From the NCBI GenBank assembly GCA_021817165.1, contig JAKAVT010000003.1, positions 11,844 through 75,843 of the forward strand: 64,000 nt of DNA. Reading direction: 5' to 3'. The position numbers and the translations under genes were made by a program. Of the stretch, positions 2,214-60,637 are shown one piece after another. The DNA is from Nanobdellota archaeon. Its GTDB lineage: Archaea; Nanobdellota; Nanobdellia; Parvarchaeales; Parvarchaeaceae. Each line of letters begins with the position of its first letter. Position 1 is the stretch's first letter. Below the pieces are notes generated by a model. It searched no databases. It saw nothing but the letters and a program-made list of their open reading frames with translations, and was not told the origin of the DNA.

Positions 2214-4968
2214 CGTTAAGCATCCTCCTTATCACGTAATTCAGTACTCCTTTATCCCTGTAATAATCCAATTCTATGTCTGAATCAATCCTTGCAATAA
2301 CTTCGGTTTCTCTTTTGATTCCGTCTTGCATATAATAAACCATCTTCAGTTTATCTCTAGGCTTGAAGGTATTTGGTATTTCTATGCTTACAGGTTTTGA
2401 AAAGTCTATTTTAAGGGAGAACCCATCCTCGCCCTCTTTAAATTGTAAGGGTAGAACGCCCATTCCAACTAGATTGCTGCGGTGTATTCTTTCAAAGCTT
2501 TTTGCAACTACTGCCTTTACGCCCAATAGCATCGGACCTTTTGCGGCCCAGTCCCTTGAACTGCCGCTCCCGTATTCTATGCCTGCAAAGACTATCAAGG
2601 GAGTATTGCTTTCTTTGTATTTCATAGCAGCGTCATAAATGAACATCCTTTCCTTTGAAGGCACATAAATCGTATAGCCTCCTTCGGTTCCTTCAACAAG
2701 CAGGTTTTTGATCCTTGTATTTGCGAACGTGCCTCTCATCATAACTTCATGGTTTCCGCGCCTAGAGCCGTAAGTATTAAAGTCTTCAAGCTTTACTCCC
2801 TCTTTCAGCAAGTACTCTCCAGCCGGGCTGTTTTTTGATATGCTGCCTGCCGGTGAGATATGGTCCGTTGAAATCGAATCTCCGAAAACCGCCAGAATGG
2901 TGGCATTCTCTATAGATTTTATTCCACCCTCCTTTTGATTCTCAAGCTCGTCAAAGAAGGGCGGCAGACGAATATATGTACTATCCTCTTCCCATTTGTA
3001 CACTAAACCAGTTGCCGATGGCAATTCATTCCAGTATGGGTTTACATCTTTTAGATTATCCCGGTATTTTTCCTTGAACTCTTCCGGAGATAATACAGAA
3101 CTGACTATCTTGTTTATTTCATCATTTGAAGGCCATATTTCTTTTAAGTAAACATCCTTTCCATCGCTGCCTTTTCCCAAAGGCTCCTTGCTTAGGTCTT
3201 TTAATATCGACCCGGCTATTCCGAATGCTACCACAAGCGGAGGAGACATAAGATAATTTCCTTTAACCTCATTGTGTATCCTTGCTTCATAGTTTCTATT
3301 ACCTGACAGTACACTGGCGGTCATTATCCCGCTTTCTTTTATTGCATTAGAAACCTCCGGAACCAAGGGACCGCTGTTTCCTATGCACGTTGTGCAGCCG
3401 TAGCCCACAAGAGAATAACCCAATTGATCCAAATACTTGTCCAAGCCCGCTTTTTCTAAGTATTCCGTTACAACTCTTGAACCGGGCGCAAGGCTTGTTT
3501 TAACTTTGTGGTTTATTTTTAATCCCTTCTGAACGGCATTTCTTGCAAACAATCCTGCTGCAATCATGGCAACGGGATTACTGGTATTTGTACAGCTTGT
3601 TATGGCAGATATTACTATATCGCCGTCTGAAAACTCCTCTTCTTTCCCATCGCTGAATCTTATATTTACTTTTTTAATTTCCTTTTTACCATTATTGAAA
3701 TCTATTTTTTCCGGCTCAACAACGTTGCTTTCCGTTCCTAACCTGATTTCTTCTTTACCCAACTTCTGTGTCTTTCCATCGTTTATGAAGGCATTTATGA
3801 AAGTAGAAGGAACATTCGAAAGGGAAACTGCCTGCTTTGGATTGCTAGGCCCTGAAACAGATGGTTCAACGGTATTTAAATTCAATTCAAGAACGTCTGA
3901 AAACTTTACCTTCGAATAATCTAAGTTGAACATTTTCTGGTTTTCATAGTAATTTTTAACAAGCTGTATCTGGCTTTCAGGCCTGCCAGTGGCTTTAAGG
4001 TAATTCAACGTTTCGTTGTCCACTGGGAAGAACGAGATGGTTGCACCGTATTCCGGACACATGTTGGATATGGTAGCTCTGTCAGGCAGCGAAAGGGCAT
4101 TTACCCCTTCCCCATAAAATTCTATAAACCAGCCTACCACTTCTTTCTCTCTAAATTTACGTGTAAGTGTAAGCGCTAAATCCATTGCCGTTACTCCTTC
4201 ATTTAACCTGCCAGTTAAATGAACCCCCAAGACCTTTGGAGTGGTGAAAGAAACCGGTTGGTTAAGCAATGCCGCCTCTGCTTCTATTCCGCCTACGCCA
4301 AAACCCACAATGCCTAAACCGTCTATCATCGTGGTGTGCGAGTCCGTTCCTACCAGTGTATCGGGGTATGCAACGTTTGATTTGCCGTCGAGGTGAACGA
4401 CTTCACCAAGATATTCCAGATTAACCTGATGGCATATGCCTGCGGAAGGAGGAAAGACATTGAACGACTTGAAGGCCTGGCTTGCCCATTTCAACAGCTT
4501 ATACCTTTCCTTGTTCCTTTCTACTTCCTTTTCCTGGTTTATCTTAAATGAATCTTCCGTGCCAAATGAATCTATCTGTACGGAATGGTCAATTATCAGG
4601 TCTACTTTCATCAGCGGTTCAACTGTCGCTGGATCCTTTCCTTTTTTGGCTACGTAATCGCGAATAGCCGCTATGTCCACGACTGCCGGCACGCCGGTAA
4701 AATCCTGCATCAACACCCTTGAAACCTTAAATGGAACGTCATTGTCATTTGGATTCGAAGGATCCCAATTCGCAATGTTCATCACATCTTTGTCCTTAAC
4801 GCTTTTTCCATCCAAATTCCTAAGAAGAGACTCTAAGACAACTCTTACAGAAAAAGGTAGCCTTGAGATATTATAGCCCTGCTTTTCTAATTTTGGTAAC
4901 GAATAATAGTTTATTGTTTTCCCGTTTAAATCAAATTTGGATAGTGTTTTCTGCCACTCTGTTTCCAC
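2203..4968 (-). CDS. acnA: aconitate hydratase A
   Basis: 921 aa with LMQDFTGVPAVVD, GTDSHTTM, TSCTNTSNP and CTTCIGNSG Fe-S ligand motifs. GTG start preceded by a TATA box at 21 nt. Confidence 0.95.
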   Translation of the reverse strand: METEWQKTLSKFDLNGKTINYYSLPKLEKQGYNISRLPFSVRVVLESLLRNLDGKSVKDKDVMNIANWDPSNPNDNDVPFKVSRVLMQDFTGVPAVVDIAAIRDYVAKKGKDPATVEPLMKVDLIIDHSVQIDSFGTEDSFKINQEKEVERNKERYKLLKWASQAFKSFNVFPPSAGICHQVNLEYLGEVVHLDGKSNVAYPDTLVGTDSHTTMIDGLGIVGFGVGGIEAEAALLNQPVSFTTPKVLGVHLTGRLNEGVTAMDLALTLTRKFREKEVVGWFIEFYGEGVNALSLPDRATISNMCPEYGATISFFPVDNETLNYLKATGRPESQIQLVKNYYENQKMFNLDYSKVKFSDVLELNLNTVEPSVSGPSNPKQAVSLSNVPSTFINAFINDGKTQKLGKEEIRLGTESNVVEPEKIDFNNGKKEIKKVNIRFSDGKEEEFSDGDIVISAITSCTNTSNPVAMIAAGLFARNAVQKGLKINHKVKTSLAPGSRVVTEYLEKAGLDKYLDQLGYSLVGYGCTTCIGNSGPLVPEVSNAIKESGIMTASVLSGNRNYEARIHNEVKGNYLMSPPLVVAFGIAGSILKDLSKEPLGKGSDGKDVYLKEIWPSNDEINKIVSSVLSPEEFKEKYRDNLKDVNPYWNELPSATGLVYKWEEDSTYIRLPPFFDELENQKEGGIKSIENATILAVFGDSISTDHISPAGSISKNSPAGEYLLKEGVKLEDFNTYGSRRGNHEVMMRGTFANTRIKNLLVEGTEGGYTIYVPSKERMFIYDAAMKYKESNTPLIVFAGIEYGSGSSRDWAAKGPMLLGVKAVVAKSFERIHRSNLVGMGVLPLQFKEGEDGFSLKIDFSKPVSIEIPNTFKPRDKLKMVYYMQDGIKRETEVIARIDSDIELDYYRDKGVLNYVIRRMLNDGE

Positions 4969-5058: not shown

Positions 5059-5703
5059 TTATTTGATTTTCTGTGCAGTATTATCCGTGTTATCTATTTT
5101 ATCGTTTTTTGATTCCTTTTCAGCTAAGCTGCTTGAATTTGAATCAGAAGGTTTTATAGGAATTGATGCAGCATTATTCTCACTAACTTTATTATTTTGG
5201 GTTTCAGTTTGTACAGTTGCATTTGTTTCGGTTTTTTGAGGCTGGCCAGCCTTCTGGAATTTTATTATATCGTATTCATCTTCATAAGGTTTTACAAGCT
5301 TTTCGTACACCTCTCTTAATTGAAAAGGGCTGTAAACCAATTCTTTCCTTTTGTCCGTAGAAATGTCATACTTGTGGGTGTGGTGCAGTACTTTAGGTGG
5401 GCAGATTTCGCTGCATAGACCGCAGAATATGCACTTATTAAAGTCTATTGCAGGAGCTTCGCTCCTTGCATTTGTATGAAAACCGGCTTCTTTGAAATCA
5501 ACTTTCTGCATCCTTATCGCATCAGAAGGGCAAATTTTAAAACAGAGTTCGCAGCCTATGCAGTTTTCTAAATCTAGACTGAGCATTCCTCTGCTTCTTT
5601 TTTGTATTGGCAAGGGCTTGTCAGGATAGGGATAGGTGGCCCTGTTCGAAACTGCTTCCTTTATTCCATAACCAAATACGCTGAAAGTCTCTTTTATTCC
5701 CAT
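5059..5703 (-). CDS. nuoI: NADH-quinone oxidoreductase subunit I (2x[4Fe-4S]) with a low-complexity C-terminal tail
   Basis: CIGCELCFKICP and CIFCGLCSEICP ferredoxin motifs. I prefer ATG 5703 (MGIKETF...), 1 nt after the nuoH stop, over the ORF-track start 5724. Confidence 0.9.
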   Translation of the reverse strand: MGIKETFSVFGYGIKEAVSNRATYPYPDKPLPIQKRSRGMLSLDLENCIGCELCFKICPSDAIRMQKVDFKEAGFHTNARSEAPAIDFNKCIFCGLCSEICPPKVLHHTHKYDISTDKRKELVYSPFQLREVYEKLVKPYEDEYDIIKFQKAGQPQKTETNATVQTETQNNKVSENNAASIPIKPSDSNSSSLAEKESKNDKIDNTDNTAQKIK

Positions 5704-11033: not shown

Positions 11034-11056
11034 TATAACGCCGTTATATTTATAAA
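11034..11056 (+). promoter_or_regulatory. palindromic operator (TATAACGcCGTTATA) fused to TATA box (TTTATAAA) of the HTH-sufCBD operon
   Basis: Perfect 7-bp inverted arms at 11034-11048, TATA at 11049-11056, 21 nt to ATG 11078. The same 23 nt recur at 55315-55293 (minus strand) before sufS. Confidence 0.6.
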
Positions 11057-11077
11057 GAATTAAGTTCTATGAAGTGT

Positions 11078-11440
11078 ATGTCAGAACTATTCTGCTCGAA
11101 AGTCATGTCCGAGATAATACCATCATTTAGGGCGATAATAGCGAATAAACTCCTGGAGAAAGGCATGACGCAGAAGGACGTTTCAAAGCTTCTTGGAATA
11201 ACGCAGCCGGCAATTTCACAGTATAAAAGCGGCTTAAGGGGACTTATTACAGAAAAGATGACCAAAAATGAGAAGTTCATGGAATATCTAAATGAAATCA
11301 CTTACAAAGTTTACAGCAAAAACCTTGACATAAATCTTAAGACCTGCGAGATATGCAAAGCTACGAGAGATTTTGGCGTCATAAAAGAAAAGGAAATTAA
11401 GGAGTTTCTTTGCTTACTGCAGATCGCCGGTTCCCGCTAA
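11078..11440 (+). CDS. small HTH (XRE-like) transcription regulator with four Cys; candidate SUF regulator
   Basis: GMTQKDVSKLLGITQPAISQYKSG helix-turn-helix. Cys in FCSK, TCEIC and FLC. Stop overlaps the sufC ATG (TAATG). Start moved from ORF-track 11069 to ATG 11078 on the TATA+21 nt rule. Confidence 0.7.
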   Translation: MSELFCSKVMSEIIPSFRAIIANKLLEKGMTQKDVSKLLGITQPAISQYKSGLRGLITEKMTKNEKFMEYLNEITYKVYSKNLDINLKTCEICKATRDFGVIKEKEIKEFLCLLQIAGSR

Positions 11441-12159
11441 TGGAACAGATGGATGTAAGGGCACTTGAAGCCTCGGTAAACGGCAAAAAGGTGCTGAATG
11501 GAGTTGACATTTCAATACAAAGAGGAAAAATACACGTGCTTATGGGGCCGAATGGCAGCGGAAAAAGCACGCTGGCAAATGTTATAATGGGCAATCCAAA
11601 ATATACTGTAACCGCCGGATTAATAAATTTCAACGGCGAAGACCTACTAAAACTAAAGGTAAATGAGCGCGCTAAAAAAGGGATATTCCTAGCATTCCAG
11701 GAGCCTGTTGAGATATCAGGGGTTAACACGATGAACTTCTTGGTTACAGCACATACTAATTTAAGAGGGAAGGACCCGGAGCTAAGAAAAGAAATCACGA
11801 AAAAGATGAATGAATTGAATCTTCCGGACTCCTTTCTGAAAAGATCGCTAAATGAGGGATTTTCGGGTGGAGAAAAGAAACGGTTTGAACTTTTGCAGGT
11901 TATGCTTTTGAAGCCAAAGATTGCAATACTTGATGAGATTGATTCGGGTATGGACATAGACAGTGTAAGAATGCTTGGCGAGATAACTAAAAACCTGTCT
12001 AAAGACACTGGATTTCTGATGATAACTCACAATGACCATATATTAGATTATATAAAACCGGACATGGTAAGCATAATGAAAGACGGTAAAATAATAAAAA
12101 GCGGGGATTATCAGCTGATTGAACAGATAAGAAAGGAAGGATACAAGCAGCTAATTTGA
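11440..12159 (+). CDS. sufC: Fe-S cluster assembly ATPase SufC
   Basis: GPNGSGKSTL Walker A, FSGGEKKR signature, ILDEIDSGMD Walker B. ATG 11440 preferred to the upstream TTG 11410. Confidence 0.95.
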   Translation: MEQMDVRALEASVNGKKVLNGVDISIQRGKIHVLMGPNGSGKSTLANVIMGNPKYTVTAGLINFNGEDLLKLKVNERAKKGIFLAFQEPVEISGVNTMNFLVTAHTNLRGKDPELRKEITKKMNELNLPDSFLKRSLNEGFSGGEKKRFELLQVMLLKPKIAILDEIDSGMDIDSVRMLGEITKNLSKDTGFLMITHNDHILDYIKPDMVSIMKDGKIIKSGDYQLIEQIRKEGYKQLI

Positions 12160-12160
12160 C

Positions 12161-13555
12161 ATGGAAAAAATAGAGTTTGATTACAGTAAATACGATTTTA
12201 AAAACTCTACTGCGAAATACAAAATTTTATTCAATGAGGGCCTGTCAGAGGAGGTTGTAAAAAGAATTTCAAAGCTTAAGAACGAACCGGAATGGATGAC
12301 GGAGTTTAGGGTAAATGCGTACAAGTTCTTTGTAAAAAGGCCCGTGCCGGAATGGGGCGCAGACCTGTCAAAAATAAACTTTGAAAACATAACTTACTTT
12401 GCAAGAGCTACGGACAAAAAGACAAACAACTGGGATGATCTTCCAGAGGACATAAGAGACACTTACAATAAATTAGGGATACCCGAAGCCGAAAAGAAAT
12501 CGCTGTCCGGAGTGGAAGTAATGTATGAAAGCGAAGTAGTCTACAATAGCGTAAAAAAGGAACTTGAAGAAATTGGCGTCATATTCTGCGATACTGACAC
12601 TGCAATCAAACAGTACCCAGAACTCGTCAAAAAATACTTCGGAAAAGTCATCTCGCCCAATGACAACAAATTCGCGGCATTGAACTCTGCGGTATGGTCT
12701 GGTGGCAGTTTCATATACATTCCAAAAGGCGTAAAAGTGCCAATGCCGCTGCAGGCTTATTTCAGAATAAACGCAGCAAACATGGGACAATTTGAAAGAA
12801 CACTTATAATAGCAGATGAAGGTGCTGATGTTACATATGTGGAAGGTTGCACGGCGCCCGTTTATTCCAAGGACTCTTTGCATGCCGCGGTTGTTGAAGT
12901 AATAGCCCACAAGAACGCACATGTTAAGTATATCACCGTACAGAATTGGTCCAGTGATGTGTACAACTTGGTAACTAAAAGAGCATTCGCATATGAAAAT
13001 GCATTTGTGGAGTGGATAGACGCAAACATGGGGTCAAAAGTTACTGAAAAATATCCTTCGGTGTATTTAATGGAACCGGGCGCAAAGTCAAACGTATTGT
13101 CAGTTGCGTTGGCCAATAAAGGCCAGCACCAGGACACGGGAACAAAAGCAGTGCATTTGGCTCCAAACACCAGTTCAGTCATACGCTCAAAGTCGATCTG
13201 TTTGAATGGCGGAAGAACGACTTACAGAGGTTTGGTAAAAGTAAAGAAAGGAGCGACAGACGTAAAATCAAGCACGAGATGCGATGCATTAATATTTGAT
13301 GATTTTTCAAGAACCGACACTTACCCTTACATGGAGATAGACGAGGAAGAAAGCACGATATCGCATGAAGCATCGGTCGGCAAAATAGGAGATGAGCAGC
13401 TTTTCTACCTTGAATCCAGGGGTTTATCAGAATTGGAAGCCATAAACATGATAGTTCTCGGGTTCATAGCGGAATTCGTAGAGGAGCTGCCGATAGAGTT
13501 CGCAGTCGAATTCAACAGATTGATAAAAATAAATATGGAAGGAGCAGTTGGCTGA
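12161..13555 (+). CDS. sufB: Fe-S cluster assembly protein SufB
   Basis: 464 aa with the typical SufB beta-helix core (FERTLIIADEGADVTYVEGCTAP...; HEASVGKIGDEQLFYLESRG). Confidence 0.95.
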   Translation: MEKIEFDYSKYDFKNSTAKYKILFNEGLSEEVVKRISKLKNEPEWMTEFRVNAYKFFVKRPVPEWGADLSKINFENITYFARATDKKTNNWDDLPEDIRDTYNKLGIPEAEKKSLSGVEVMYESEVVYNSVKKELEEIGVIFCDTDTAIKQYPELVKKYFGKVISPNDNKFAALNSAVWSGGSFIYIPKGVKVPMPLQAYFRINAANMGQFERTLIIADEGADVTYVEGCTAPVYSKDSLHAAVVEVIAHKNAHVKYITVQNWSSDVYNLVTKRAFAYENAFVEWIDANMGSKVTEKYPSVYLMEPGAKSNVLSVALANKGQHQDTGTKAVHLAPNTSSVIRSKSICLNGGRTTYRGLVKVKKGATDVKSSTRCDALIFDDFSRTDTYPYMEIDEEESTISHEASVGKIGDEQLFYLESRGLSELEAINMIVLGFIAEFVEELPIEFAVEFNRLIKINMEGAVG

Positions 13556-13562
13556 TCCTTTT

Positions 13563-14702
13563 ATGAAAAGTGAAAGTGAGCCGAATTGGCTTTTGGAATA
13601 TCGAAAAGAAGAAAGGGAAGCAGCCGATAAATCGAATCTGGAAGATAGAAACATATTCTTAAAATACGTAGAAAAAGAAAATGAGATGTACTTCTATGAT
13701 CTAAAGGAAACAGAAGACAAATCAAATGATTTGCTGCGCTATGACAATGAAACATTTAAGGATAAACTTGAAATTAAAGCTCTAAAAGATTTGGAAAAGC
13801 TGCCAGAGCAGATATATGGATTTAAAGACAAAGACAGGGTTGAAGCGCAGATAAACTCTGATTTTTCCGAAGGAGTTATAATAACATTTAAGGATAACAT
13901 AAACATAAGTAAACCCCTTACAATAAAGCAGGATGTAGACTCTGGCAGAAAAATAACGAAAATAATCCTGTCAATAGGAAAAAACAGCAAACTTTACGTT
14001 AACGACGAGGTGGATTCCTCAAAAAATGCTTATTCCGGTCAAAACGTGTACGTCATTTTAGAAGAAGATTCGGAACTAAATTTTATGCTTTTGGATAAAT
14101 CAAATGGGAGAAGCATTACAAATTTAAGCCTGATAACTAAGGGAAAGGTCAATTTCCTTTCTTTGCTGACAAATGAAAAGATAAGCAGGAACAGGCTGTG
14201 GATAAAAATGCTTGAGCATTCTGAAGTAAACATACAACAAGGATTAATCGGAAACAATGAAAGCTATTTTGACGTTGAAAGCGAGATAATACATTCAGAA
14301 AAAAACACCAAAAGCAATCTTAACTACAGAGCAGTGCTGGATGATAGTTCAAAGGCCGTGTATAAAGGAGTTATAAGACAAGAAAAACCTGCCGTAAATT
14401 CATATGCTTATCTGTCGGAGCATTCGCTTGTCCTTGATAAAAACGCAAAGAGCATTTCGGTACCGAGCTTGGAAATCGAAACAAACGAATTAAAGGCATA
14501 CCACTCTGCATCGTCCCAGCCACTAGACAAAAGCATGCTTTTTTACGCAATGTCTAGGGGTCTTGACAAAAACACTGCGGTCAAAATGATAGCACAGGGA
14601 TTTGTAGAAGTGGTATTCAATAAAACGGAAAACCAGGAATTATTGGATGCTTTGAAAAATCTTATAGAAGACAAAATGGGTTATCTGGACAGTAAACCAT
14701 AA
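13563..14702 (+). CDS. sufD: Fe-S cluster assembly protein SufD
   Basis: SufB/D-family C-terminal region (LKAYHSASSQPLDKSMLFYAMSRGL). Follows sufB. ATG 13563 preferred to TTG 13548. Confidence 0.85.
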   Translation: MKSESEPNWLLEYRKEEREAADKSNLEDRNIFLKYVEKENEMYFYDLKETEDKSNDLLRYDNETFKDKLEIKALKDLEKLPEQIYGFKDKDRVEAQINSDFSEGVIITFKDNINISKPLTIKQDVDSGRKITKIILSIGKNSKLYVNDEVDSSKNAYSGQNVYVILEEDSELNFMLLDKSNGRSITNLSLITKGKVNFLSLLTNEKISRNRLWIKMLEHSEVNIQQGLIGNNESYFDVESEIIHSEKNTKSNLNYRAVLDDSSKAVYKGVIRQEKPAVNSYAYLSEHSLVLDKNAKSISVPSLEIETNELKAYHSASSQPLDKSMLFYAMSRGLDKNTAVKMIAQGFVEVVFNKTENQELLDALKNLIEDKMGYLDSKP

Positions 14703-24764: not shown

Positions 24765-25742
24765 ATGGAAAGAAATAAATTCAGATATGTCATTTTGTTG
24801 TTCGCAATAGTTATAATTTTCATGATGGTCGGAAAAGCAAATGCCGTGCCTTATTCTCAAGTTAGCATTTTTGATAACATCACCCAAACATCATATCTTT
24901 ATTCGTACTCAACGGTGCATTATACTATAACGATATATAATGCCTCCGACTCTAAGTTCAATATCAGTTTACCGTCCAACACGGAAAATTTAACGGTTTT
25001 AAACGGCGTAACATTTAATATCTACCCTTCTTCAGACTGCCATACCGTTTCTGTACCGAGCGGATGTATATTGGTGGGATTAAATAACATTAAAAGTGGA
25101 GTACCCATAAACCTGCAGTATAATTATTACCAAAACTACACCGGTCTAAATAATTCTTTTAATTCAACGATATATTTTCTTCCTTCAAGTTCTACCCGCT
25201 CGTTATCAATAGATATGCTTTTGCCCAAAGGCGCATATATACCTAGTGGAGCATACAATATACCAACTTCAACAATAATTCCGGTTGCAAGTCATTTTGA
25301 AGTATCTTGGAATTTAATAAACCAGACCTATCTAAATGTTACCGGGTATTATATAAATTTACCATTTATAATACAGTATAATGATGTAATCCCAACAAGC
25401 AAAGCTCCGCCAAATAACAATTATTATTTGTATTACATTATCATTCCAATTATTTTGATTGCCGCATTTGTATTGTATTTTTATTTCGTAAAAAACAGAC
25501 AGGCAGATCCGAGAAAACCCGTGAAAAATGACAATAAAAAGTTATTGTTTAGCCTGTTAAACCACGATGAAAAGATAATTTTATCGACATTAAATAAAAA
25601 AGACTTCATTTATCAAGCAGATATAATAAAAAAGACGGGATTCTCGAAAATAAAGGTAAGCAAGATTTTATCAAAGTTATCAAGGTATAGGCTATTGAAA
25701 ATAAAGCAGGATGGCAGAACAAACAAAGTAAAAAGACTGTAA
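24765..25742 (+). CDS. membrane-tethered winged-helix protein (signal/TM, sequon-rich ectodomain, TM, cytoplasmic wHTH)
   Basis: N-terminal hydrophobic segment ending ANA, about 200 aa of N-x-S/T-rich domain, TM YYIIIPIILIAAFVLYFYFV, then EKIILSTLNKKDFIYQADIIKKTGFSKIKVSKILSKLSRYRLLKIKQDGRTNKV (MarR/TrmB-like wHTH). Confidence 0.6.
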   Translation: MERNKFRYVILLFAIVIIFMMVGKANAVPYSQVSIFDNITQTSYLYSYSTVHYTITIYNASDSKFNISLPSNTENLTVLNGVTFNIYPSSDCHTVSVPSGCILVGLNNIKSGVPINLQYNYYQNYTGLNNSFNSTIYFLPSSSTRSLSIDMLLPKGAYIPSGAYNIPTSTIIPVASHFEVSWNLINQTYLNVTGYYINLPFIIQYNDVIPTSKAPPNNNYYLYYIIIPIILIAAFVLYFYFVKNRQADPRKPVKNDNKKLLFSLLNHDEKIILSTLNKKDFIYQADIIKKTGFSKIKVSKILSKLSRYRLLKIKQDGRTNKVKRL

Positions 25743-53686: not shown

Positions 53687-54067
53687 TCAATCGTTTTCTG
53701 CAGATTTTTTATAAATTCTTTTTACTGCATCCAAACCGACTGTTGCGCATTTTACTCTGGAAATGCTTATACCATTTATTCCCAGCAATTTTTCCATGTC
53801 TTTTAGCTCCATGCTGTTAATCTCTTCCAAGCGTTTGCCCACTAAAAATTCGCATAGCTTAGACAAAGAAACTGTAGATATGACACAGCCTTTCCCGTCA
53901 AAAGAGGCGTTTTTTACTATTCCATTCTCAACGTCTAAATAAACAGAAAACTTGTCGCCACAAGAAGGAGAATAACCCTCTTCAGAATAGTTATACTTAC
54001 TTAGTTTACCATAATGCTCCGGATTCCGGTACAACTCCACCAATTCATAAAATTTATTGTCTTCCAT
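53687..54067 (-). CDS. sufU: SufU-type Fe-S/sulfur-transfer scaffold (IscU/NifU-N family)
   Basis: NPSCGDK-like SPSCGDKF, GKGCVIS and RVKCATV motifs, collinear with Bacillus SufU. Confidence 0.85.
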   Translation of the reverse strand: MEDNKFYELVELYRNPEHYGKLSKYNYSEEGYSPSCGDKFSVYLDVENGIVKNASFDGKGCVISTVSLSKLCEFLVGKRLEEINSMELKDMEKLLGINGISISRVKCATVGLDAVKRIYKKSAEND

Positions 54068-55271
54068 ATTTTGCAGCTATTTTGTTTAATTCGTCAATAA
54101 ATGTGTTTATCTCCTCTTTTGTATTATAAAAGTAGAGACTTGCTCTAGCCGCTCCATCCAATTTTAGTCTGTCTTCTATCAATGGCTGCGCACAATGAAA
54201 GCCAGACCTTACTGCAATTCCTTTTTTGTCCAATAAATAAGCAGTATCATGTGAATGCAATCCTGTAACATTAAAAGAGAAGATGCTGTTGAATCTCTTG
54301 CTCTTCCCGCTGTATATCTCTACATTTTTAAGTTCCTTTGCTCTTTCGTACAGGTAGTTAGTAAGCTCAGCTTCATATTTTTCTACGTTTTCCATACCAA
54401 GATTATTAAGGTACTCTACGGCTAATCCAAGACCATATGCCCCTTCAACATTCTGCGTGCCTGCCTCAAAAAGGTTCGGAACATTTTCATAGATAATCCT
54501 TGACAAACTTACGTCTTTTATCATCTCTCCTCCAGTTAAAAATGGCTGCATGTTCTTTGACGTGTCTTTTTTTATGTATAAAACACCTATGCCAAAAGGA
54601 GCAAGCATCTTATGACCTGAAAATGCCACAAAATCCGCATCAATATCCTTTACATCAAAAGGCATGTGCGGTATGGATTGTGCAGCGTCTACTAAGACTA
54701 AAGCGCCCTGCTCATGCGAAAGCCTGGCGATCTCCTTTACATCATTGATAGTTCCCGTTACATTTGAAGCATGCGTTAAAGCAACTAACCTTGTATTTTT
54801 AGGAAGTCGTCTGTAATAATTAATATCTAATTCGTAATCCTCTGACACCTGAGCTATGTCGACGCCTATGCCTCTTTCTTTCAACCGCAACCAAGGAAGA
54901 AGATTTGAATGATGCTCCATATAGGTACTTGAGATTCTGTCCTCTTTTTTAAATGGAAAGGAAAATGAAACTAGGTTTATCGCTTCCGTTGCGTTCCTTA
55001 CAAACACTATCTCCTCCGGCTCGGCATTTATGAAATCCGCGACCTTTTTCCTGGCGTCATTGTATACTTTCGTTGATTCTTCCGCCAAGCTGTGTATGCT
55101 TCTTATCGGATTTGCATTTATGTTTTCATAAAAATACTTAAGCCCCTCTATGACTGCTGAGGGCTTTTGAGATGTAGCGGCGTTGTCAAAATATATCAGG
55201 TTATTACCATTCACTTGTTTACTCAAAATAGGAAAGTCCTTTCGAACGTTTTCTATGTTTATACCAGTCAT
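54054..55271 (-). CDS. sufS: cysteine desulfurase SufS (class II aminotransferase V)
   Basis: FSGHKMLAPFGIGVLY (PLP Lys) and RSGFHCAQP (active-site Cys loop). Overlaps sufU by 14 nt. Confidence 0.95.
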   Translation of the reverse strand: MTGINIENVRKDFPILSKQVNGNNLIYFDNAATSQKPSAVIEGLKYFYENINANPIRSIHSLAEESTKVYNDARKKVADFINAEPEEIVFVRNATEAINLVSFSFPFKKEDRISSTYMEHHSNLLPWLRLKERGIGVDIAQVSEDYELDINYYRRLPKNTRLVALTHASNVTGTINDVKEIARLSHEQGALVLVDAAQSIPHMPFDVKDIDADFVAFSGHKMLAPFGIGVLYIKKDTSKNMQPFLTGGEMIKDVSLSRIIYENVPNLFEAGTQNVEGAYGLGLAVEYLNNLGMENVEKYEAELTNYLYERAKELKNVEIYSGKSKRFNSIFSFNVTGLHSHDTAYLLDKKGIAVRSGFHCAQPLIEDRLKLDGAARASLYFYNTKEEINTFIDELNKIAAKYGRQ

Positions 55272-55292: not shown

Positions 55293-55315
55293 TTTATAAA
55301 TATAACGGCGTTATA
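55293..55315 (-). promoter_or_regulatory. palindromic operator plus TATA box of the sufS-sufU operon (second copy of the 23-bp module)
   Basis: Minus strand reads TATAACGCCGTTATA-TTTATAAA, then 21 nt, then ATG 55271. The module plus spacer fills the whole 44-nt intergenic region. Confidence 0.6.
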
Positions 55316-58925: not shown

Positions 58926-58966
58926 TGAAATGAACTAGTATTTAAGCTTTTAGTTTATATTTTTTG

Positions 58967-60235
58967 TTAAGTAGTAATATTTAATTCCTCTCTTATTATT
59001 GTCTCCGCTCTGTTGATTATAGACGGTGAAAAGGCTATGTTCAGCTCTCTTGTCCTGCCGTATCTACCGTGGCTTTTTATGCGCGACATGACTAATGAAT
59101 TGTAATCCATGTCAGCTATTAGATCAGAAATCCTCCTGAAGGTCAACTTCTTAAGCCCAAACTTATCAGAAAGCTTAAGATAGGCATCATAAACTTCACC
59201 ACTGTATACTTTACCCATTCTTTTGTTCCTTGCTACGGAGATAATGGACAAAAGAATGCATTTACTCTGTCTAGTCATAGATTTAATCATCCCTTCAGTA
59301 ATGTTTTGTTCCAGAGACTCCGCTGCATTATCCAATTCTTCTTCGGATATAACCGATTTGCCTAACTGTTGCGTTCTTTCTCCAGCCACTTTTAAGAGAT
59401 CCAATGCTTTCCTCACATCACCATGTTCTTGAGCGACTATGGCAGCGCACTTCCTCAAAACGCCATCACTTATGGCATTTTCATAAAATGCCTCTTTAGA
59501 ACGATTTAAGAGTATGTCAAAGATCTCTTCTGCATTGTAAGGTTTGAATATGATTTCAACTGGATTCAAGGAGCTTTTAACTCTTTGATCCAAAGAGGCT
59601 TTCAAATCAATGTTGTTTGAAATACCGATTATAGCGATCTTTGCATGCTTGAGCGACTCGTTTAACCTTAAAAGGCTATATAATACGCCATCCCCCGCAT
59701 GCTGTATCAATTTTTCTATCTCGTCTAATATCAGAATAAGGTATTTATTTTCTGCGTCTATGGTCTTTACTAGTCTTTTATACAAGCTATTGACAGAAAG
59801 GCCGCTTTCGGGAACGTTTATATTAAAAACAGCACACAAATTCGATATAAGCCGGTATTCTGTGTTATTGTTTTCAAGCCTACAGTTCATATAAACCGGA
59901 AGAACATTTACTTTCTTTTCTTCTGCAGAACTTGCTAATTTTTTGCCGACGTATTTTGTAACAAGAGATTTGCCAGTACCTGAAAAACCATAAACTAACA
60001 CATTAGAGATTCCTTCAAAGAGCAAACTAGGGGCCATAATCCTTGACAAAAGCTCTATTTCGATATTCCGATGGGTTATATCATCGGGTATAAAAGAAGA
60101 AGATAAAACCTCTTTGTTCTTAAAGATGCGTTTGCTGGTAAGAAATTCATTGAATATGACAGCTGGATCAACACTGTTTATTTTATTTGTATTTGTTTTC
60201 TGAGAAAAGTCATTGTTGGATTGAAACGTTTCCAT
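58967..60235 (-). CDS. cdc6: Orc1/Cdc6 replication initiator
   Basis: GFSGTGKS Walker A, ILILDEIE Walker B, AAA+ lid and C-terminal winged helix (RRISDLIADMDYNSLV). Adjacent to the ORB repeats. Confidence 0.95.
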   Translation of the reverse strand: METFQSNNDFSQKTNTNKINSVDPAVIFNEFLTSKRIFKNKEVLSSSFIPDDITHRNIEIELLSRIMAPSLLFEGISNVLVYGFSGTGKSLVTKYVGKKLASSAEEKKVNVLPVYMNCRLENNNTEYRLISNLCAVFNINVPESGLSVNSLYKRLVKTIDAENKYLILILDEIEKLIQHAGDGVLYSLLRLNESLKHAKIAIIGISNNIDLKASLDQRVKSSLNPVEIIFKPYNAEEIFDILLNRSKEAFYENAISDGVLRKCAAIVAQEHGDVRKALDLLKVAGERTQQLGKSVISEEELDNAAESLEQNITEGMIKSMTRQSKCILLSIISVARNKRMGKVYSGEVYDAYLKLSDKFGLKKLTFRRISDLIADMDYNSLVMSRIKSHGRYGRTRELNIAFSPSIINRAETIIREELNITT

Positions 60236-60550: not shown

Positions 60551-60637
60551 TATTACTATATATATTACTACTTTACAAAAACAATTAAATAGAAACATTT
60601 AAATATCAGTAGTTCTTAGGAAATTGAATTAAAAAGT

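Follow-up and report, generated by a model that had tools for sequence, protein, structure and literature searches.

A palindrome fused to the TATA boxes of two archaeal SUF operons is the likely operator of a cysteine-rich helix-turn-helix regulator

The 64,000-nt stretch of DNA analyzed here (the window; contig JAKAVT010000003.1 of assembly GCA_021817165.1, from a Nanobdellota archaeon) carries two operons for iron-sulfur (Fe-S) cluster assembly, and both are preceded by the same short element, a palindrome joined directly to a TATA box. The first gene of one operon encodes a 120-residue XRE-type helix-turn-helix (HTH) protein, our candidate regulator (11078..11440, + strand), which matches HTH_3 (PF01381) at residues 25-57 with 31.5 bits against a cutoff of 23. 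Its stop codon overlaps the start of sufC (TAATG). The sufC gene, encoding the ABC ATPase of the SUF scaffold (11440..12159, +), was recognized by its ABC_tran match and by synteny with relatives, and it is followed by sufB (12161..13555, +; SUFBD_core, 281 bits, and SufBD_N) and sufD (13548..14702, +; SUFBD_core, 149 bits), which starts at TTG 13548 or ATG 13563. The other operon lies on the minus strand and comprises the cysteine desulfurase gene sufS (54054..55271, −; TIGR01979, 493.9 bits against a cutoff of 475) and a sufU-like sulfur-transfer/scaffold gene (53687..54067, −; NifU_N; TIGR01994 at 71 bits, below cutoff), which overlaps the end of sufS by 14 nt. The initial annotation had assigned both operons to Fe-S assembly, and the profile matches to SufC, SufB, SufD, SufS and SufU/NifU_N bear this out.

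The element, TATAACGCCGTTATATTTATAAA, lies at 11034-11056 on the plus strand and at 55293-55315 on the minus strand, and the two copies are identical at 23 of 23 nt. Each is a palindrome with 7-bp arms and a 1-nt center, fused to the octamer TTTATAAA; in the sufS copy the arms extend to 8 bp (ATATAACG-C-CGTTATAT). The 15-bp palindrome before the HTH gene, TATAACG-C-CGTTATA (operator 1; 11034..11048, +), occupies approximately −44 to −30 relative to ATG 11078. It thus covers the position of the transcription factor B (TFB) recognition element (BRE), where its right arm falls, and it abuts the TATA box of the HTH-sufCBD promoter (11049..11056, +), which is invariant in relatives. Operator 2 is the same palindrome (55301..55315, −), kept before sufS-sufU in relatives and adjoined by the TATA box of the sufS-sufU promoter (55293..55300, −). 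From the last A of TTTATAAA to the ATG there are exactly 21 nt in both copies (ATG 11078, +; ATG 55271, −). The identity of the two modules, their perfect arms fused to a TATA octamer, and their shared orientation and spacing were all part of the initial annotation, and each was confirmed. Operator 2 starts right after the TGA stop of the upstream yjeF_N gene, and the 44-nt yjeF_N-sufS spacer contains the operator, the TATA box, the 21 nt and nothing else.

Within the window the element is confined to these two promoters. TATAACGNCGTTATA has two exact matches, which are the two module copies; with up to two mismatches it has four, against 0.3-0.4 expected, a number that 0 of 100 shuffles reached. 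The one-mismatch matches lie within sufD (14361) and at the 3′ end of a triose-phosphate-isomerase-like open reading frame (ORF) (20580; named by synteny, from a PF00121 (TIM) match on the L001 gene), and neither is a promoter site. We found no further promoter copy of the module in the window, so the earlier observation that the motif is present in no other intergenic spacer stands. Spacer variants at 24926, 41778, 49653 and 60292 were considered as further sites; they are mostly intragenic one-mismatch matches and were left uncounted. Taken as an inverted repeat (31 nt, 90% complementary, with the 23-nt module fully matched), the module pair is also one of the longest in the window.

The conserved start of the HTH gene is ATG 11078, not the upstream ATG 11069: homologues are 120 residues long and begin MSELFC. 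We prefer ATG 11078 because an identical protein, annotated in Candidatus Parvarchaeota (ARMAN-type DPANN archaea), also starts at MSELFC. The in-frame ATG 11069, 9 nt upstream (MKCMSELFC; 11069-11077), is also present in L032, L100 and L103 and absent from other relatives; because it lies only 12 nt past the TATA box, it is probably outside the transcript. Other promoters of related Parvarchaeota, inspected qualitatively, have TATA-like boxes ending approximately 21-23 nt before the ATG, and the palindrome is not present at those inspected. A window-wide count of TATA-to-ATG spacing, from crude ORF calls, yielded 14 usable promoters. No Shine-Dalgarno sequence is visible at the two window promoters. 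This absence, the 21-nt distance between TATA box and ATG, and the like geometry of neighboring promoters in related genomes make leaderless transcripts likely, and the HTH ATG is a predicted leaderless start.

The contigs of relatives, fetched via homologues 66-76% identical to the window regulator, provide a phylogenetic footprint. The relatives share a gene order of nuo operon, two unknown genes, HTH, sufCBD, HAD, primase-like and L1. Their intergenic DNA before the HTH gene cannot be aligned except for TATAAC-(G/A)(G/C)C-GTTATATTTATAAA, and the 21 nt to the ATG are kept. The module is also conserved before sufS-sufU in relatives L038, L046, L060, L087, L092, L108 and L116, and in four further genomes it stands before HTH-suf as well as before sufS (L010/L116, L038/L122, L060/L103, L078/L087). 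The search in relatives that the initial annotation had proposed therefore finds the module retained upstream of suf genes at both promoters, amid diverged flanks.

To avoid circularity, we also collected loci by protein similarity only: 80 metagenome loci were fetched with the peptide pattern [IV]TQPA[VI]SQY plus tblastn confirmation, and 76 of these were usable, with at least 60 nt of sequence upstream of the HTH start. TATAAC-N3-GTTATA, with at most one mismatch, occurs within 100 nt upstream of the HTH start in 52 of the 76 (68%), as opposed to four matches in the remaining 393 kb of the same loci. Within these loci, this speaks against the concern that the motif might be as frequent elsewhere as before the HTH gene. 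After dereplication the sites fall into two classes. The 41 sites of class A have a TATA-like octamer (TTTAAATA, TTTTTAAG, TTTATAAA and others) immediately behind the palindrome, with a distance of 44-48 nt between motif start and start codon. In class B (5 sites; loci L145, L157, L159, L161, L175, L180 and L182), the palindrome sits between the TATA box and the ATG, 17-22 nt before the ATG, and would overlap the predicted start site.

Position 7 of the class A sites is A or G in 40 of 41 cases and position 9 is T or C in 36 of 41, and across both classes the two positions pair by Watson-Crick rules in 13 of 46 sites against approximately 19 expected, implying no selection for pairing, as suits half-sites read by a protein better than a hairpin. 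Because of this lack of selection, the half-site would be TATAACR, read independently on each side. The consensus drawn from these sites is TATAAC-R-N-Y-GTTATA, and the CG core of the window is one variant of it. Downstream of the HTH gene in the protein-selected loci there is sufCBD, or a cysteine desulfurase with an IscU-like gene, or no linked pathway gene, and stand-alone HTH genes retain the operator. Because the motif accompanies the HTH gene even where that gene stands alone, it has the signature of an autoregulated transcription factor.

A variant of the same arrangement exists in Methanobacteriales. Searching with a profile of more distant family members brought up homologues from cultured Methanobacterium and Methanobrevibacter that are annotated only as "transcriptional regulator." Their genes sit in cysK-cysE-HTH operons, and one locus has cysS and a Cys_Met_Meta_PP-IscS-IscU operon further downstream. 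None of the promoters at the Methanobacteriales loci examined contains the N3 motif. TATAAC-N4-GTTATA (e.g., TATAACAATTGTTATA), often in tandem, occurs in the cysK promoter region of 5 of 5 loci examined, and N4 sites are also present in the promoter of the Cys_Met_Meta_PP-IscS-IscU operon. The N4 sites lie at L206 2748-2783; L207 2698-2752 and 7043-7154; L189 1375-1561; L197 1234-1321; and L202 2095-2155. At L206, a second small HTH_3 gene (109 residues) is found just upstream of the homologue.

The extent of the putative regulon was addressed by scanning 185,579 species genomes with TATAACNNNGTTATATTTATA, a pattern that contained part of the TATA box and left the central three bases free. 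There were at least 120 matches. Among those listed, 84 of 119 loci are archaeal by record titles, in a collection of which archaea make up only a few per cent, and the free central bases are mostly R-S-Y. At least 41 of the 120 matches listed lie upstream of the HTH gene or of Fe-S assembly genes, namely sufCBD, sufS or another cysteine desulfurase. Broken down further, at least 24 lie before homologues of the HTH gene, mostly with sufCBD behind (Parvarchaeota, Micrarchaeota/Acidifodinimicrobium, Aenigmatarchaeota and others), at least seven before sufS-sufU, at least two before other cysteine desulfurases, and at least eight have sufC or sufB immediately downstream (Thermoproteota, Nanopusillus/Nanobsidianus); in Nanopusillus it is sufC that the motif precedes. 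In one thermoproteotal locus, L066, sufC and sufB each have their own operator and TATA box (4629-4649 and 5444-5464), 815 nt apart, implying separate regulated promoters inside the sufCBD cluster. Single or paired matches among those listed precede ThiS-like genes (Promethearchaeota), DsrE-like genes (Bathyarchaeota) and 4Fe-4S ferredoxins, and one precedes a ThiI gene followed by an HTH homologue. The motif further suggests joint control of cysteine synthesis, sulfur carriers, tRNA-Cys and cluster assembly.

The tRNA comes from a single case. In a Hadarchaeota metagenome-assembled genome (L007 4308-4421; CAZKSL010000010.1), the module lies approximately 19 nt upstream of a tRNA-Cys(GCA) gene, and the same genome has a second match (L042) before a 4Fe-4S ferredoxin. 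When eight unexplained archaeal motif loci were compared with Rfam, the only matches were two tRNAs at L007, with tRNA-Cys directly behind the module. On this one example, tRNA-Cys may belong to the regulon. Conserved sequence (e.g., TTAACGGAGT..GGCGAAAG) lies behind the module at L014 2955-3000 and L077 7834-7880 (Brockarchaeota, Nitrososphaerota), and a module with conserved downstream sequence also occurs at L024, L041, L088 and L072 (Thorarchaeota, Aenigmatarchaeota); at all six loci there was no convincing ORF behind the module and no Rfam match. The bacterial matches of the scan were set aside; downstream of them lie a small XRE-like HTH gene (Gastranaerophilales), a TetR-like gene or repeats of Tenericutes. 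At L028, L034, L106 and L119 (Gastranaerophilales/uncultured bacteria), a very similar module, TATAACATGGTTATATTTATAAA, stands before a gene of approximately 74 codons whose product resembles an XRE-type HTH at its N terminus by eye; this may be convergence or a distant relative of the archaeal pair.

What protein might read this sequence? The window HTH belongs to a sizable family: an exhaustive profile search recovered 915 clusters (at 50% identity) at E<1e-10 and 2200 at E<0.001, in archaea only among the searches made, and the source annotations of its members are generic. The full-length layout is an N-terminal helix with a conserved cysteine, the HTH, and a C-terminal helical extension with CxxC...C. 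C90 and C93, which form the CxxC, are invariant in the family, and 90% or more of sequences have C6; the last ligand differs by subfamily, being either a single cysteine (C112 in the window protein) or a C..H..CxxC tail. The recognition helix TQPA[VI]SQY is invariant across the family (TQPAISQY in the window protein). The window protein shows all the hallmarks of the family: it has a cysteine at approximately residue 5-6, TQPA[VI]SQY and a CxxC at approximately residue 90, and its own promoter carries a TATAAC/GTTATA repeat. An AlphaFold2 model (predicted local distance difference test score 83.8) is all-helical, with less confident termini, and places the cysteines on helices 1, 6 and 7.

Known families account for little more than the DNA-binding domain. 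Pfam and NCBIfam gave no family match for the window HTH beyond general HTH models at E<=0.01; the SufR family model was not among the matches at that threshold, nor was Rrf2 (PF02082) among the nine families listed. The winged-helix family HTH_5 scored 18.1 against a cutoff of 22, the best match being HTH_3, and the MqsA-type model TIGR03830 scored 19.9 bits against a cutoff of 61.8, with a match limited to the HTH. Foldseek against the PDB reached a best E of 0.5, and sequence and profile searches for solved relatives matched the HTH part only. By analogy with known sensors, the conserved cysteines probably hold an Fe-S cluster or another sulfur- or redox-sensitive center.

These data lead us to propose that the XRE-type HTH protein encoded at 11078-11440 recognizes the 15-bp palindrome as its operator and, probably sensing clusters, represses both operons; judged from sequence, we consider this likely. 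The idea of a dimeric binder at the BRE position, acting on an Fe-S regulon operator, came from the initial annotation, and the footprint, the HTH-linked motif and the suf and sulfur targets lend it strong support. The invariant recognition helix appears to match the invariant half-site, and the element, far from being confined to the window genome, belongs to a much wider archaeal system. In the proposed mechanism, a dimer would bind the two TATAAC half-sites, the centers of which are approximately one helical turn apart. Sitting at approximately −44 to −30, it would fill the TFB/BRE contact position adjoining the TATA box, and its occupancy of the operator would block assembly of TATA-binding protein (TBP), TFB and RNA polymerase. 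HTH-sufCBD and sufS-sufU would thereby be repressed together, the second, identical operator tying sulfur donation (sufSU) to the scaffold genes (sufCBD). Because the regulator heads an operon under its own predicted control, the repression of HTH-sufCBD would be negative autoregulation.

The conserved cysteines (C6, CxxC and C112) would hold an Fe-S cluster supplied by the very machinery that is controlled. With clusters plentiful, the holo-protein would repress; when demand for clusters rises, or when they are damaged, the protein would come off the DNA and both operons would be derepressed. To our knowledge, every characterized dedicated regulator of Fe-S assembly (IscR, SufR, RirA) senses a cluster. 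We propose Fe-S sensing because of the analogy with SufR and IscR (PMC6034842; PMC9628965).

Several points weigh against cluster-sensing repression by this protein at this site. Homologous loci without an N3 motif upstream make up 24 of the 76, some of them operon-internal or with the N4 variant. In the genome scan, the fusion of motif and TATA box was imposed by the pattern, and the counts are lower bounds. The motif precedes suf, desulfurase and sulfur-carrier genes in many phyla, but for some 35-40 of the archaeal matches listed either a connection with Fe-S is not evident or the sequence behind holds no clear ORF. No HTH homologue was found within the 8 kb examined at the Thermoproteota and Nanopusillus loci. 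The C..H..CxxC tail of one subfamily resembles a zinc ribbon, and the cysteines could hold structural zinc. Finally, several archaeal activators, Ptr2 and TFB-RF1 among them, bind immediately upstream of the BRE/TATA. The last three of these points each belong to an alternative explanation.

The first alternative retains the repressor and dispenses with the cluster, so that the cysteines would bind structural zinc or act as a thiol, persulfide or cysteine sensor, and the regulon would respond to sulfur or cysteine supply or to redox state. We regard this as less likely, but as a serious alternative. It would explain why the regulon exceeds Fe-S assembly, taking in cysK-cysE, Cys_Met_Meta_PP, ThiS-, DsrE- and ThiI-like genes and tRNA-Cys, and it fits the variation of the fourth ligand between subfamilies, some with the zinc-ribbon-like tail, as well as the faint NCBIfam match to the zinc-binding MqsA class, far below its cutoff. 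However, three cysteines on three separate helices, one of them at residue 6, and kept across phyla, would be unusual for a zinc ribbon, and the dedicated Fe-S assembly regulators known to us sense clusters (PMC9628965).

A second alternative leaves protein and site as they are and reverses the sign: on a switch of the sensor, the protein would act as an activator, recruiting TFB/TBP to promoters poor in BRE. The class A geometry, seen in 41 sites, is compatible with this, since the palindrome replaces the BRE and touches the TATA box, and the right arm, GTTATA, is unlike a purine-rich BRE. But class B puts an identical palindrome between the TATA box and the start codon, where a bound dimer should block RNA polymerase, and the tandem overlapping sites in Methanobacteriales promoters resemble repressor arrays. 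Furthermore, SufR and holo-IscR, Fe-S regulators that head their own operons, are repressors (PMC6034842; PMC9628965). We therefore judge activation unlikely. Given binding, we would predict repression rather than activation with good confidence, because the class A and class B positions would both obstruct TFB/TBP or RNA polymerase.

It is very improbable, third, that some other factor, encoded away from these genes, binds the palindrome and that the HTH gene is just one of its targets. The Thermoproteota and Nanopusillus sites before sufC, with no HTH gene in the surrounding 8 kb, are what such a factor would predict. Against this, the motif precedes the HTH gene in most of the protein-selected loci, in many lineages and at stand-alone genes too; half-sites persist with an altered spacer exactly where the HTH subfamily changes; and the recognition helix is as invariant as the half-site. 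Last, that the motif is non-regulatory, being a chance repeat, an AT-rich promoter feature such as a TATA-like box present twice, or the hairpin of a terminator belonging to the gene upstream, is scarcely credible, even though its arms contain TATA-like sequence and the sufS palindrome starts right behind the yjeF_N stop and is followed by T-rich sequence, because the number of sites in the 64 kb is well above expectation even with mismatches, the association is specific to one gene family and one pathway while other inspected promoters have no motif, and the hairpin is rejected by the conservation across phyla of sequence rather than structure, with no selection for pairing at positions 7/9, and by class A elements lying upstream of the TATA box and so being untranscribed.

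Two features of these genomes stand apart from the regulatory question. In some Parvarchaeota relatives, SufB contains an intein (L003/L004 11086-13560; 824 residues, Intein_splicing and LAGLIDADG_3), and the SufB match of ARMAN-4 (L089, scaffold GG730072.1) is split in the same way; the SufB of the window (464 residues) has no intein. In an AT-rich region of the window, a 36-nt inverted repeat, 81% complementary, has arms 1.6 kb apart (58948-58983 / 60559-60594) and could mark the ends of a small mobile element.

Beyond the window there is a broader reading, towards which we lean by a small measure: that a cysteine-rich XRE-type HTH protein reading TATAAC-N3/4-GTTATA is an undescribed, ancient archaeal factor-operator pair governing cysteine supply, sulfur trafficking and Fe-S assembly. 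The pair would control SUF, SMS/MIS-like and cysKE genes by occluding the BRE/TATA or the start site, and it would range over DPANN lineages, Methanobacteriales, Hadarchaeota, Thermoproteota, Bathyarchaeia and probably Asgard archaea. SUF and SMS systems are essential in Archaea and considered ancestral. In the literature searched, which did not cover subscription-only papers, we found no report of an archaeal suf, sms or cys regulator or of this motif, and the passages on archaea in a 2026 review of Fe-S biogenesis name no transcriptional regulator. The system lends itself to direct testing: the operator is short and near-invariant, the regulator is small and belongs to a family numbering at least 915 clusters (50% identity, E<=1e-10), and homologues are present in cultured Methanobacterium and Methanobrevibacter. 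In uncultured archaea, the genome-reduced DPANN among them, the motif also offers an easy means of predicting sulfur and Fe-S regulons from sequence.

How does this circuit compare with those already known? Archaeal repressors of the Lrs14, MDR1, Phr and TrmB type occlude the BRE/TATA or the transcription start, and both positions appear to recur here as classes A and B. Those repressors belong to the Lrp/AsnC, DtxR, ArsR/winged-helix or TrmB families, and we know of none that controls Fe-S assembly or has this operator. The DNA-binding domain is that of the XRE/Cro-C1 superfamily (PF01381), in which small dimeric repressors acting on short palindromes are typical. Unlike typical members, the window protein has an N-terminal cysteine helix and a C-terminal CxxC...C extension, without a curated full-length family.

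The closest parallels in organization are bacterial. The SufR DNA-binding domain is a winged helix, and the cluster ligands of IscR are three cysteines and one histidine, arranged differently from the putative ligands of the window HTH. SufR (e.g., M. tuberculosis Rv1460; also in cyanobacteria and actinobacteria) is a small regulator at or next to the suf operon with a palindromic operator (PMC6034842). The window system is similar in that an HTH gene heads the suf operon, a palindrome lies in the suf promoter, conserved cysteines presumably report Fe-S status, and autoregulation is predicted; it differs in its XRE/Cro-C1 HTH, in an unrelated operator, and in an archaeal TATA/BRE promoter, predicted to be leaderless, in place of sigma-70. 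Holo-IscR represses its own operon (PMC9628965), and as with IscR, one sensor would co-ordinate Fe-S assembly operons; as with CymR of the Firmicutes, an Rrf2-family protein, genes of cysteine synthesis would be included. The archaeal regulon spans both themes, with suf/isc-like genes and, in Methanobacteriales, cysK-cysE, while the protein, unlike IscR and other Rrf2 members, has no PF02082 match, another fold and another operator. Overall, the comparison suggests that this is probably a circuit of the IscR/SufR/CymR kind, a functional analogue outside those protein families; if so, archaea would have their own counterpart of IscR, SufR and CymR, built on an unrelated protein fold.

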